Shown: positions 71 through 3,986 of the stretch, piece by piece
Layout: each line of letters begins with the position of its first letter
Position numbering within the stretch: position 1 is the stretch's first letter
Virus record (IMG/VR): IMGVR_UViG_2667527818_000004
Direction: 5' to 3' (one strand)
From: a virus
Taxonomy: Duplodnaviria; Heunggongvirae; Uroviricota; Caudoviricetes
DNA: 4,703 bases
Made by a program: the position numbers and the translations under genes
The notes under the pieces: model-generated
The model's input: the letters and a program-made list of their open reading frames with translations, nothing else
Databases searched by the model: none
What the model was told of the DNA's origin: nothing

Positions 71-1921
71 GTGCTCCTCTTCTTGGTACTGATGGCACTC
101 CAGTTAATGGCCAAAGCAGCTGATAATGCAGACTGGAAGGCCCGCTGGGGTAGCGTCCATCACACAGACCGTACGTTGTTAGCACATTATCGCGCGTCGT
201 TGAAAAGCGCCATTCAGCGCAAGGCTAATATCACTCAAGCCATCTCCCGCTATGAGAAATTATTGAACCGTACTCAGAAGGCCGCGACGGATATCAAACG
301 CCTGCGCCCGCTGGTGGAGGATGCAATAAATAAAGGCATTCTGGATGTTGATCCTGATCTGGTTAACCATGCGAATGAGTTCCTTGTTATCGGCGATCGC
401 TCATGGCGTGTAGGCCAATACTACGATTGTGCCGGTGATATCGTTCGCATTAAGTCGCTGGACTTCGACAGCCAGCGCGCAGACGTGGAGATCATCTTTA
501 CCTTCAAAGGTACCAAATCGGGTAACTGGGATGTGAAGACGCTGGATAAACAGGTTGATGTAATTCCCGATGAAGATGCTGTTATGCAGAAAATCAGTGG
601 TGGCGTCTCCATCGCCGGGATTAACGACATCATTTCCTGTGACGATTTCTACCGTTTCCAGCAGCGCGGCATGATCAAAATCACTGACTCATACGGCGTT
701 CAGACTACAGAGTCAGGCTATAGCATCGATTTTGTTGGTACCTATACGGACCCACTGAAGCATGCGGTTTACCCGGATCGCCGTGACGGCGCGCTGAAGT
801 CGTCAATTGCAAAATGGGTGCTTGGTATGATGTCGGAAGGGAATAACCGCCAGATCCGTTCGGCAGAAACATTCCTGGTTGAACTGTTTGGCTCCAATTA
901 TGGCGATGTAATCGCGTCATACGGAGATACGCTATCCCCTGAAGCAATTCAGGAGAAAATAGCGGATGCGATCGCCAGAATGCCGGAAAAAACAAGCCAG
1001 GGGGCTACTCGTAACGGGGATTCTGAACTTGAAGTCACCAATGCCATTTTCGGTACCAATGAGTTCCGGGCGTCAGATTATGAGATCACCACAGCACAGT
1101 TTGGCACCATTGGCATTTACAGCAATAAAGACGAGATCAAACAGTCAATGGACGCTGCAAGCGCGCGCATTGCAGCAGAACGCAAAGCCAATCTGAATCA
1201 TGCAGTTTCCGCGCTGACTCAATCGTGGGTAACAGCAATCAGGGAGGCCGCCACCACAGGAAAAATCACACCGGCAATTGCGGATGTCGTAAACGACGGC
1301 TCTAAATTTATGGATGCCTATAAAATGGATGCGGTGCAGTTGCCATCAGCCTATGGTCAACTCAGCTATCGCATGACCTACAACCTGGTATCAATGTTTT
1401 CCGACCTTGCCATCCTTGGGCTGGTGGATCTTAACGAGGTTACGCCGGAATTGCTCAGCATGCGCAAGAATCATGTGGAGATATTGCAGAGAATTAACAC
1501 GGTTCTTGCCGGGCGCACCGATGAAGAGAAACAGGCCGACGCTGATCGGATAAACCTGGCCCTTGGCAACATCACGGAGGAAGAGATTGCCGCCAGAAAC
1601 GAGAAACAAGAAGAGTTATCATCAATACAGGGTGATGCCACCAGCATAGCTCAGTCTCTTGGTCTGAATTATCGCGTATCCACCGCCGACCTGAAGATGA
1701 TGTTCGCACCAAAATTCGCCGCTGGCGAGGTATTTGGGCTTCAGGAAGCCTCAGGCATGAAAGGCGTTCTTTTCCGTGCGAAAGACGCAATCAAGGCGAA
1801 ATTCGGCGCTCGCTGGCTGCCAGCGAAGGCGAAGAACAGCGATTTCCCGGGTAACTGGTGGATTATCGAGACAAAACACAACGTGGCGGACGTTCTGGCC
1901 GTCATCCAACAATACGCATAA
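71..1921 (+). CDS. Hypothetical protein, 616 aa, function unknown; first gene of a probable three-gene plus-strand operon
   Basis: Long uninterrupted ORF ending at TAA 1919-1921, about 50-52% GC. The frame is open back to the window edge (no stop in positions 2-70), so the true start is ambiguous: GTG 71 overlaps an SD-like GGGAGG (66-71), and TTG 83 or ATG 89 are alternatives, or the gene may begin upstream of the window. No Walker A (P-loop) motif found by eye. Hydrophobic N-terminal segment LLFLVLMALQLMA. Confidence 0.7.
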   Translation: MLLFLVLMALQLMAKAADNADWKARWGSVHHTDRTLLAHYRASLKSAIQRKANITQAISRYEKLLNRTQKAATDIKRLRPLVEDAINKGILDVDPDLVNHANEFLVIGDRSWRVGQYYDCAGDIVRIKSLDFDSQRADVEIIFTFKGTKSGNWDVKTLDKQVDVIPDEDAVMQKISGGVSIAGINDIISCDDFYRFQQRGMIKITDSYGVQTTESGYSIDFVGTYTDPLKHAVYPDRRDGALKSSIAKWVLGMMSEGNNRQIRSAETFLVELFGSNYGDVIASYGDTLSPEAIQEKIADAIARMPEKTSQGATRNGDSELEVTNAIFGTNEFRASDYEITTAQFGTIGIYSNKDEIKQSMDAASARIAAERKANLNHAVSALTQSWVTAIREAATTGKITPAIADVVNDGSKFMDAYKMDAVQLPSAYGQLSYRMTYNLVSMFSDLAILGLVDLNEVTPELLSMRKNHVEILQRINTVLAGRTDEEKQADADRINLALGNITEEEIAARNEKQEELSSIQGDATSIAQSLGLNYRVSTADLKMMFAPKFAAGEVFGLQEASGMKGVLFRAKDAIKAKFGARWLPAKAKNSDFPGNWWIIETKHNVADVLAVIQQYA

Positions 1922-1927
1922 CAGGAG

Positions 1928-1945
1928 CGCCCGGTTCGCCGGGCG
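1928..1945 (+). promoter_or_regulatory. Intercistronic GC-rich RNA hairpin with UUCG tetraloop between the 616-aa and 146-aa genes
   Basis: cgcccgg (1928-1934) pairs with ccgggcg (1939-1945), giving 7 G:C pairs around the loop ttcg (1935-1938), plus a possible G1927:U1946 wobble. AGGAG (1923-1927) lies immediately 5' of the stem and the ATG (1955) 9 nt 3' of it. No U-tract follows, so it is not a classic intrinsic terminator. Confidence 0.4.
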
Positions 1946-1954
1946 TCGCATAAT

Positions 1955-2395
1955 ATGGCCACACTATCTGATACAATAAAACCGAATAAAACATATCTTG
2001 AGGCGGTACTCCGTACAGCGTTGTTAGGAAAGACAGAAGACGAATACGTTGATTTCTTCCTGTCAGGGCTACGCGGGCGATTACTGAAAAATCCCCGCCT
2101 GTACCGCAGCTATGGTCCATACTGGTCGGAAATTAAAAAATTATTACTGGAGCGCGGTTATGGTAATTTCGGTCGTCTCGTTGACCGTGACGTTCGCAAA
2201 ATTTACCGTTATGACCGCCCGGCGCTAACACTCATAGCCGCGACGCTCTACAGCCAGGAGCGTTTTGATAATGGTCAGATATACTCAGCCTGGCATTTAC
2301 TGCCAGTGCCTGAAGAGGTTGACGACCAGGACTATGAGTTTGAGTCTTACGATTTGGAAGTTGAAGCCTTGGCACAGGCTGGAGAGAAAACTTGA
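1955..2395 (+). CDS. Hypothetical protein, 146 aa, with acidic C-terminal tail; function unknown
   Basis: ATG at 1955 lies 33 nt after the upstream stop. The ORF has the same GC content as, and sits in tandem with, the 616-aa gene. The C-terminus is rich in D/E (EEVDDQDYEFESYDLEVE). Stop TGA 2393-2395 overlaps the start of the next ORF. No canonical SD directly upstream; an AGGAG at 1923-1927 is separated from the ATG by a hairpin. Confidence 0.6.
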   Translation: MATLSDTIKPNKTYLEAVLRTALLGKTEDEYVDFFLSGLRGRLLKNPRLYRSYGPYWSEIKKLLLERGYGNFGRLVDRDVRKIYRYDRPALTLIAATLYSQERFDNGQIYSAWHLLPVPEEVDDQDYEFESYDLEVEALAQAGEKT

Positions 2396-2640
2396 AAAAG
2401 CGATACTACACAGTAAAGCATGGGACGCTACGAGCATTACAAGAGTTTGCTGACAAGCATAACGTTGAGGTGCGCAGGGAAGGGGGAAGTAAAGCTCTGC
2501 GCATGTACCGTCCGGACGGAAAATGGCGGACGGTCGTCGATTTCAAAACTAACAGCGTTCCCCAGGGCGTCCGCGACCGGGCATTCGAGGAATGGGAGCA
2601 GATCATCATAGATAACGCATTGCTCCTGAATGCTGATTAA
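2392..2640 (+). CDS. Hypothetical small basic protein, 82 aa (TTG start); weak motif-level resemblance to HicA/YcfA-like small RNA-binding proteins, unverified
   Basis: TTG 2392-2394 overlaps the TGA stop of the upstream ORF (TTGA), suggesting translational coupling. SD-like GGAGAG at 2381-2386 sits 5 nt upstream of the TTG. Stop TAA 2638-2640 is followed 5 nt later by a hairpin. The alternative first in-frame ATG (about 2500) would give only 46 aa. The HicA-like resemblance (GGSKAL...RPDGKWRTVV...VPQGV) is recalled from memory and lacks the usual His residues. Confidence 0.5.
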   Translation: MKKRYYTVKHGTLRALQEFADKHNVEVRREGGSKALRMYRPDGKWRTVVDFKTNSVPQGVRDRAFEEWEQIIIDNALLLNAD

Positions 2641-2644
2641 GAAC

Positions 2645-2673
2645 TCTCCGGCCTAGGGAGATTAGGCCGGAGA
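2645..2673. terminator. Probable bidirectional transcription terminator hairpin between convergent operons
   Basis: Perfect 11-bp inverted repeat tctccggccta (2645-2655) / taggccggaga (2663-2673) with a 7-nt loop gggagat. It lies 5 nt after the plus-strand stop (2640) and 8 nt before the minus-strand gene end (2682). There is no clean U-tract on the plus strand; the minus-strand transcript would continue as GUUCUUAAUC (partial U-tract). Confidence 0.5.
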
Positions 2674-2681
2674 TAAATATA

Positions 2682-3986
2682 CTATATAAACTTAGATATA
2701 ATATCGTGAATCTGTTGTAGCGGGATTTCTTCCATCTTACTCTTAATAAGAGAGCGGTTAGATGCTGTCAGTGAAGGCCATTTTGTTTTCCAGGCTAGAT
2801 ATGCTCGCCATGAGTAGCCTGTTTCGTAAGGTTTATTCATATAAGTCATTGAGTGTTCAACCGCATGTATGTATTTTTTCTCAAAGTTGGTTCCTTTTAC
2901 TTCAAATAAACTACCGAAATAAATAAGCCATTTTGCCAGGTGTTCATACTGCTCCCATGCGCTAGACTCTTTAGTAAGATCTATTTTTTTATCTATTATA
3001 TCACAAAAAACATTTAATACCTTTTCATCATTCCAGCTATATCCAGATGATGAAATGGAGGAAATGATATGATAAAAAGAATCCTCTAACTTCAAGAACT
3101 CTATTTTATACTCTCTTCCGTTTTTTATTACCGATTTGATTGAGTGCCTCAATTTGTCTTTTATTTTTTTTGCTTCTGGAATTTTCTTGTTAAGTTTTCT
3201 AAAGAAATCAGACACCTCTGTTTTATCTATAACCCTAATCCCAAAGCAGGAAAAATAGTAATCTTTAATAGGTTGCAATAGTTTCCCTCGGGAAATAAGG
3301 AAAATATTGGAGGACATTACGTTGTCCCGTGAAAATACCTTATATTCATTTATAATCGCCTTGAGGTTCGCGTCACTTAGAGAATAGCCAAGAATAACAA
3401 TAGTGTTTTCATGTAGAACTGTGCTTAGTTTATTTGAAAAGTAAGAATTACCATTTATAAATCTGAAATAATCCTCGCTAGTAACAACCATATCTGATGG
3501 GGAGTCTATAGAGCCGTGAACATGGTAGACTTTAACCTCACAATTATATTTTGGAATTGGCAGGCCGGGGGTGATTGTACACGTTCGATTCTCTCCAGCC
3601 AGTTTTTCTGCTAACTTGTCATAATTTGTCGTAATTACTTTAAATGTGTTTTCTTTGAAAAAGTCTTGAATATATTCAATTGATGGATCAAGTTCGATTG
3701 AGGCTATGATTTTCTCAATCTCCTGGTAAATATTTTTCCCCGAAAGTATAAATTTTAGTGCAATAACCTGAGCAGCCTCTTCAAGGCTAAGGTCTTTTGC
3801 TTTTCCATCAGGAAATAATTCCTCTTTGAGTGAGTCACCATCCTTCAATAAACCGCACAGTTGCTCCAATAAAGATTGCCAACTTGGGGCTTTATCATCA
3901 GAAACAGCCTTTGAAAATCCAGTGCCTGTAAGAAAGCACAGCCTATGTGTAGCTGCTGCATAGGCAATTTCTATATACTCGCTCAT
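2682..3986 (-). CDS. SIR2-like (sirtuin/DHS-like NAD-binding) domain protein, 434 aa; ThsA-type SIR2 N-terminal domain plus an uncharacterised C-terminal domain; candidate NADase anti-phage effector
   Basis: ATG at 3986-3984 (minus) is preceded by GGAG (plus 3993-3996) with a 6-nt spacer. Stop TAG at 2684-2682. Motifs read from the translation: FLTGTGFS (residues 18-25, glycine-rich NAD-binding loop), VITTNYDKL (residues 117-125, N121) and VYHVHGSID (residues 153-161, H155/H157), followed by IVILGYSLSDANL. These match the order and spacing of SIR2_2-type defence sirtuins as I recall them for ThsA. The gene is about 30% GC against about 50% in the flanks. Confidence 0.8.
   Translation of the reverse strand: MSEYIEIAYAAATHRLCFLTGTGFSKAVSDDKAPSWQSLLEQLCGLLKDGDSLKEELFPDGKAKDLSLEEAAQVIALKFILSGKNIYQEIEKIIASIELDPSIEYIQDFFKENTFKVITTNYDKLAEKLAGENRTCTITPGLPIPKYNCEVKVYHVHGSIDSPSDMVVTSEDYFRFINGNSYFSNKLSTVLHENTIVILGYSLSDANLKAIINEYKVFSRDNVMSSNIFLISRGKLLQPIKDYYFSCFGIRVIDKTEVSDFFRKLNKKIPEAKKIKDKLRHSIKSVIKNGREYKIEFLKLEDSFYHIISSISSSGYSWNDEKVLNVFCDIIDKKIDLTKESSAWEQYEHLAKWLIYFGSLFEVKGTNFEKKYIHAVEHSMTYMNKPYETGYSWRAYLAWKTKWPSLTASNRSLIKSKMEEIPLQQIHDIISKFI

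Follow-up and report, generated by a model that had tools for sequence, protein, structure and literature searches.

A conserved hairpin between the Shine-Dalgarno sequence and the start codon suggests a split ribosome binding site for ulx in P1-like phage-plasmids

How might a ribosome find the start codon of a phage gene whose only Shine-Dalgarno (SD) element lies far outside the usual linear distance? The question is raised by a 146-aa open reading frame in a 4,703-nt stretch of Caudoviricetes DNA (IMG/VR record IMGVR_UViG_2667527818_000004; the whole stretch is hereafter termed the window), for which an original prediction made from the letters alone proposed that a hairpin folding between SD and AUG would set the spacing in the manner described for phage T4 gene 38. 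An mRNA processing or stability element and a partial terminator were named there as alternative roles for the same hairpin.

The window belongs to a P1-like phage-plasmid and covers its darB–ulx–lxc–(variable)–mat segment, with megablast matches to P1, P7, SJ46, RCS47 and others at 97-99% identity over positions 105-2640 and the mat end; the gene names darB, ulx (146 aa) and lxc/bof are those of the curated P1 record. The product of darB is the P1 antirestriction methylase/helicase. The first 700 nt of the window are 100% identical to E. coli plasmid pF719-2, in which an IS3-family transposase is encoded directly upstream of the matching stretch; the extreme left end of the window is thus an IS end, presumably resembling an IS2 terminal repeat, and darB is here reduced to its 3' remnant (Table 1). 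Although ulx is intact, Dar is probably defective in this replicon. Further downstream, the slot occupied by res/mod in P1 is taken by a gene for a SIR2_2-domain protein, in what appears to be a defence-gene swap in the variable region; this domain was the sole Pfam match among five ORFs, with nothing returned for Ulx. A perfect 11-bp hairpin between the convergent lxc and SIR2 genes was the top minus-strand hit of a scan for terminator-like sites. The TTG start of lxc overlaps the ulx stop (TTGA, 2392-2395), which suggests that lxc is translationally coupled to ulx, besides being served by the lxc promoters annotated inside P1 ulx.

Table 1. Coordinates of the features discussed, in window positions
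Feature	Position	Strand	Remarks
IS end	1-59 (to ~104)		IS3 family; cuts off darB
darB 3' remnant	71-1921	+	stop TAA 1919-1921; 97-99% identity to P1 darB
Shine-Dalgarno AGGAG of ulx	1923-1927	+	linear distance to ATG 27 nt; sole SD-like element upstream of ulx
RNA hairpin	1928-1945	+	5' arm CGCCCGG 1928-1934, loop UUCG 1935-1938, 3' arm CCGGGCG 1939-1945
9-nt spacer	1946-1954	+	DNA TCGCATAAT, RNA UCGCAUAAU; mostly predicted unpaired
ulx start ATG	1955-1957	+	
ulx	1955-2395	+	146 aa; Dar antirestriction component aiding DarB packaging; 99% identity to P1 Ulx
lxc (bof)	2392-2640	+	C1 co-repressor modulator; P1 annotation mapped via L001, ORF list; TTG start
Hairpin between lxc and SIR2 genes	2645-2673		TCTCCGGCCTA…TAGGCCGGAGA
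SIR2_2-domain protein	2682-3986	-	434 aa; Pfam E = 1.4e-23; between lxc and mat

Ulx was detected by LC-MS/MS in P1 virions (PMC9024508), and its N-terminus is kept from M1 onward in relatives down to 30% identity (M-A/T-T-L-S/I-D-T-V/I-K-P); because of this detection and of the conservation from the ATG, Ulx is a real, translated protein, and it is a recognised component of Dar antirestriction (PMC12810830).

No in-frame ATG, GTG or TTG occurs in the ORF list between the darB TAA and position 1955, and no SD-like run is found in the spacer. The AGGAG adjoins a 7-bp all-G:C stem without a gap, such that the SD-ATG separation is 27 nt when counted linearly and 9 nt when the hairpin is excluded. 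The positions originally assigned to the SD, stem and loop were verified, as was the count of 9 nt from the folded hairpin to the AUG. Thermodynamic folding also returned the proposed structure, at -13.6 kcal/mol for the 7 bp (-15.6 kcal/mol with an optional G1927·U1946 pair), with stem pair probabilities of 0.85-1.0 in folding contexts of 51-401 nt; G1927, the last SD base, pairs with U1946 at a probability of 0.2-0.83. When more flanking sequence is folded, the prediction has the SD partly paired to the upstream coding sequence, a pairing that translating ribosomes would disturb.

Compared to shuffled sequence, the energy of the hairpin alone is unremarkable. Its z-score is -0.94 in a 71-nt context, and when the 33-nt intergenic region is shuffled by mononucleotides, 1.4% of the shuffles fold equally well; the arms form a perfect 7-nt inverted repeat in a repeat search, of a kind that is common across the window. 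With so weak an energy signal, we relied on covariation. The UUCG loop, which the original prediction had stressed, is incidental: it is closed by G1934-C1939, whereas the extra-stable cUUCGg motif needs a C-G pair, and it gains nothing over a GAAA loop in ViennaRNA. An extra-stable tetraloop was rejected on account of the wrong closing pair and the replacement of the loop in relatives. A permissive Rfam search yielded no family for the hairpin, the lone match in the window being a chance-level CyaR (2641-2723, E = 3.4), and the curated P1 GenBank record has no feature annotated in the darB–ulx gap.

Related ulx loci were gathered from phage and plasmid records, GTDB genomes, IMG/VR and metagenomes. 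The first scan of viral contigs consisted of 80 near-identical P1 copies, and the genome contig scan yielded 4 loci; diversity was obtained via a D6 Ulx query and a metagenome scan led by a diverged sequence. Across 192 of the 200 ulx loci, GGAG is followed directly by a perfect 6-8 bp GC-rich stem with a 3-8 nt loop, then by 5-9 nt (13 once) and the ATG. These loci comprise 18 distinct combinations of SD, stem, loop and spacer, all with perfect stems when placed in a structure-aware register, for which (i) GGAG abuts the stem in 17 (a single C intervenes in L165), (ii) the stem-to-ATG spacer measures 5-9 nt in 17 (13 nt in L165), (iii) the linear SD-ATG distance is 22-32 nt in all 18, and (iv) the hairpin begins 8-17 nt past the first base of the darB stop codon in every variant. 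The bases between the darB stop and GGAG vary in both sequence and length (0-7 nt), and the tails that follow the stem in relatives are A-rich (AAUUUGA, AAUAACCGU, AAUAAAC).

The stem itself comes in some nine types: CGCCCGG/CCGGGCG (P1 type), CGGCCCC/GGGGCCG (D6 type), CGGCCUC/GAGGCCG, CUGCCCC/GGGGCAG, UGGCCUGG/CCGGGCCA, CGGCCC/GGGCCG, CGCCCCC/GGGGGCG, UCGCCC/GGGCGG and a G·U variant of the P1 stem. Compensatory double changes occur at stem pairs 2, 3, 6 and 7. Loops are of at least 14 kinds, among them UUCG, UUAG, CGCG, CGGAG, GAAG, AUGU and GAAA, as well as AACC, AACU, AGCC, AUCC, GGUU, GUGA, GCAA and more. When 26 distinct sequences were aligned by MAFFT and left unadjusted, 89.9% of cells paired, even with six misregistered rows thus counting against the structure; the covariation score in this alignment is 0.406, compared to at most 0.169 for slid partners, and none of 500 shuffles reaches it. 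RNAalifold recovered 5 of 7 pairs from the raw alignment, and since rows with 6- or 8-bp stems were misregistered there, the pairs were also tabulated in the stem register. L010, L121 and L154 contain wobble pairs that hold on the plus strand only, the opposite strand carrying A·C mismatches; the conserved object is thus a sense-strand RNA helix. This comparative evidence is decisive for the hairpin being more than chance.

Some relatives depart from this arrangement. Of two Vibrio loci, one has a conventional SD (GAGGA + 7 nt) and no bridging hairpin (L007), and the other has GGAG + 6 nt with a hairpin that sits upstream of the SD (L008). Another locus (L194) likewise has no bridging hairpin and carries AAGGG + 11 nt, and in Marinobacterium (L012) the ulx start overlaps the upstream gene (ATGA). 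The distribution is hence complementary: where no hairpin separates SD and AUG, there is a proximal SD (6-11 nt) or a gene overlap. In two variants (L120, L121) the ATG is preceded at 2-3 nt by a weak AAGG. In L154 (~75-117), an outlier, a CUCCGU further downstream is able to pair with ACGGAG and the minimum-free-energy stem runs into the GAG of the SD, so that the SD may be partly sequestered in the folding model.

We also inspected, as possible natural knockouts of SD or hairpin, loci with darB replaced (L005, L180/187) and one with an IS in the loop (L204). Rearrangement junctions lie in or beside the ulx hairpin at ~1440-1500 in L005, ~1160-1200 in L180/L187 and ~1150-1200 in L204. One lineage has lost darB and the SD to a replacement that reaches as far as the 5' arm, and its 3' arm carries a G-to-A substitution; in the E. 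albertii locus L005 the ulx gene is a pseudogene, and the hairpin loop of L204 holds an inserted IS-like end. Because ulx in these loci is freshly recombined or decaying, they do not discriminate between mechanisms.

Taken as a whole, the comparisons lead us to propose, with moderate confidence, that P1-like phages have a split (noncontiguous) translation initiation region for ulx in the gap between darB and ulx. The hairpin would belong to the ulx ribosome binding site because GGAG abuts the stem, the stem-ATG spacing is canonical, and no SD lies downstream. The SD is situated beyond ~15 nt from the start, the folded distance falls within the functional range, and the arrangement is phylogenetically conserved, with an ordinary ribosome binding site found otherwise. 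Comparative tests (i.e., abutting GGAG, narrow spacer, compensatory changes) thereby agree with the T4 gene 38-like spacing that had been predicted from the window.

The proposed sequence of events is as follows. The 18-nt hairpin would fold on the mRNA directly 3' of AGGAG and loop out of the 30S mRNA track, leaving an effective single-stranded spacer of 9 nt. The 30S subunit would bind the SD via its anti-SD, with the AUG at 1955 being set in the P site; were the hairpin unfolded, the SD would be too distant from the AUG. Folding of the hairpin would thus be required for, or would enhance, initiation at ulx. With 1-8 nt between the darB stop and the SD, a terminating ribosome may pass to the ulx SD; termination-reinitiation from darB could also make a contribution for which the hairpin is not needed.

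A second junction of the same kind is found elsewhere in P1. We scanned the complete P1 genome (MH422554.1) for an SD, a hairpin, 3-13 nt and a start codon, and the pattern was present at 2 of 98 annotated starts, namely those of ulx and pmgG, compared to 3 of 3442 non-start ATGs, with cutoffs that were unequal (dG <= -7 kcal/mol for starts, <= -10 for the null) and with both start hits folding at -15.6 kcal/mol or better. The pmgG hit lies behind gene 21, a baseplate or tail tube gene, at 47653-47700 (-) in MH422554.1 (L206) and at ~660-700 in AF234172.1 (L210). It reads TAA-AGGAGG-AGGCCGG(A/G)-GAAC-(U)CCGGCCU-UUAACUUGA-AUG, and no proximal SD is present at the P1 gene 21–pmgG junction. Five loci of the P1 clade (P1, JK004, L211, L212, L214; L213 being the same as L212) share this architecture, consisting of TAA, (A)AGGAG(G), a GGCCGG…CCGGCC stem with variable loop, 9-10 nt and ATG; the junction is kept with loop changes in JK004 and in IMG/VR relatives.

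The D6 clade (phage D6 itself, L208 640-700, and L215-L246) also has a covarying hairpin after gene 21, there located 5' of the SD (GGGAG or GGAGG), which lies 3' of the hairpin and 7-9 nt before a TTG, GTG or ATG. This codon, 18 nt upstream of the ATG annotated in D6, is probably the D6-clade pmgG start; in L235 and L245 the position annotated as the start in D6 is not a start codon. Whether measured from the SD itself or from the SD with its hairpin folded, the distance to the start is therefore 5-10 nt in every case, which supports the spacing logic. Conservation of the junction hairpins even where they do not bridge SD and AUG makes an additional, SD-independent role probable, and from the sequences compared this role would most plausibly be in intercistronic mRNA stability. 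As a separate observation, the P1 sheath gene (48513-50102) has a GC-rich hairpin without a U-tract, GCGCCCCC-GUG-CGGGGCGC, 15 nt before its start (L206 50103-50150, -), and is preceded by no SD match of at least 4 nt at canonical spacing, only by a GGGA run ~7 nt upstream; this constitutes a third intercistronic hairpin among the P1 late genes.

These junctions bring forward the strongest competing explanation, namely that the darB–ulx hairpin is mainly an intercistronic stability or processing element, which we consider somewhat unlikely as the whole account. According to this explanation, the hairpin would act as a 3'→5' exonuclease barrier, or as the end of a decay intermediate for the darB segment, and would set the amounts of upstream versus downstream message; ulx translation would be independent of folding, proceeding via darB termination-reinitiation or via weak SD-independent initiation on the A/U-rich spacer. 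It would account for the GC-rich, U-tract-less hairpins after stop codons at several P1-family junctions, for the covarying hairpins kept upstream of the SD as well (D6-clade gene 21–pmgG, P1 sheath gene, Vibrio L008 darB–ulx), and for a position 8-17 nt past the darB stop at which, from the inferred ribosome footprint, a terminating ribosome need not melt the hairpin. However, it leaves unexplained why GGAG abuts the stem (save for the one C in L165) while neighbouring bases vary, and why 192 loci combine a stem-ATG distance in the canonical range with the absence of a downstream SD. A stability role is compatible with the split-site reading as a second function, not as its replacement: the hairpin is probably also an intercistronic mRNA element, e.g., a 3'-exonuclease barrier protecting the darB segment. 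Since the hairpins of D6-clade pmgG and Vibrio L008 are conserved without bridging, SD bridging is probably not the hairpin's only reason for being, and perhaps not the original one.

A more speculative extension, which we hold to be doubtful, sees in the hairpin an intercistronic module that serves two purposes in P1/D6-like phages and has come to lie, in the course of evolution, on one side of the SD or the other. The SD-independent role would then be that of a stability barrier, or of an insulator holding the terminating darB ribosome at the foot of the hairpin; with the SD 5' of the hairpin, initiation at ulx would become strictly dependent on refolding behind that ribosome. Were this true, Ulx synthesis would be tied to DarB synthesis, P1- and D6-clade pmgG would form a natural 'SD-swap', and a folded hairpin of 18-20 nt would be spacing-neutral to ribosomes.

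Very improbable is the notion that the hairpin is a partial intrinsic (Rho-independent) terminator attenuating transcription from darB into ulx-lxc. A stable GC-rich stem-loop right behind a stop codon would suit such a role, but the hairpin has no U-tract and is thus not an intrinsic terminator; its tail is that given for the spacer in Table 1, and the tails of relatives are A-rich as described above. The terminator scan gave 10 terminator-like sites in the window, with the hairpin not among them, and the curated P1 record annotates no terminator there. Moreover, ulx has no annotated promoter of its own, the promoters inside it serving lxc, so that termination at the hairpin would silence a gene that works with DarB. 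This part of the original prediction accordingly falls away. Least credible of all is a DNA-level palindrome (a protein-binding site, or a recombination/insertion hot spot) in place of an RNA structure, given that, for all the perfect palindromy of the element and the rearrangement or IS junctions in or beside it in L005, L180/L187 and L204, complementarity is conserved while sequence is not, the loop is free, the G·U-type pairs of L010, L121 and L154 would turn into A·C mismatches if read on the opposite strand or extruded as a cruciform, and the position is locked to SD and ATG.

A search of the literature open to full-text searching returned no description of a split ribosome binding site for ulx or pmgG of P1; the mechanism is of a known kind, with P1 ulx apparently an undescribed instance. 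Functional split ribosome binding sites are textbook curiosities that rest mainly on two T4 genes, and ulx and pmgG as third and fourth cases would mean that the mechanism is no peculiarity of T4. For ulx, the case draws on many independent compensatory changes across P1/D6-like phage-plasmids of Enterobacterales; for pmgG, it draws on a handful of P1-clade loci only. Gene callers and ribosome-binding-site predictors score such starts as being without an SD. There is also a bearing on P1 phagemid engineering and on expression of Dar antirestriction, for which Ulx is needed for DarB function, and natural variants, in which a homologous hairpin has the SD on its 5' or its 3' side, provide a ready experimental series.

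Sites of this type have been termed 'noncontiguous or split' (PMC7297116). In T4 gene 38, a hairpin is cited as shortening the SD-AUG spacing from 22 to 5 nt (Gold 1988, cited in PMC3014915 and PMC7297116), and at the gene 26-25 junction, the spacing of T4 gene 25 is given as going from 27 to 11 nt (Nivinskas et al. 1999; Malys & Nivinskas 2009, reviewed in PMC3014915), with the split arrangement of gene 25 described in that review as confirmed by reporter fusions and DMS probing (PMC3014915). P1 ulx resembles gene 38 in that a hairpin between SD and AUG cuts the effective spacing, while differing in spacing values and gene context and sharing no homology. The likeness to gene 25 is closer: the linear distance is 27 nt in both, with a stable hairpin in between and folded distances of 11 nt (T4) and 9 nt (P1), both sites lie at an intercistronic junction of a virion-protein operon, and both are kept in close relatives and give way to an ordinary ribosome binding site in distant ones. 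There is no sequence relationship between the two, the P1 site belonging to another gene in the Punavirus/D6-like family; unlike in gene 25, the ulx SD abuts the stem without a gap, and the evidence for the P1 site is comparative.

Structured but non-inhibitory initiation regions are also cited for E. coli thrS, rpsA, rpmE and fis (in PMC7297116), where, as proposed for ulx, the ribosome tolerates a stable stem-loop that arranges the functional elements. Those are larger regulatory structures, often autogenous-repressor operators, whereas the ulx element is a minimal 18-nt hairpin whose variable loop argues against sequence-specific recognition by a protein. Finally, polycistronic mRNAs contain intercistronic stabilising hairpins or REP-like 3' barriers, as in the malEFG REP, puf and pap operons. 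These share with the ulx hairpin a GC-rich stem-loop that has no U-tract and sits just past a stop codon inside an operon, and the P1-family junction hairpins kept on either side of the SD recall them. Unlike the ulx hairpin, however, such barriers do not normally lie between an SD and its start codon.
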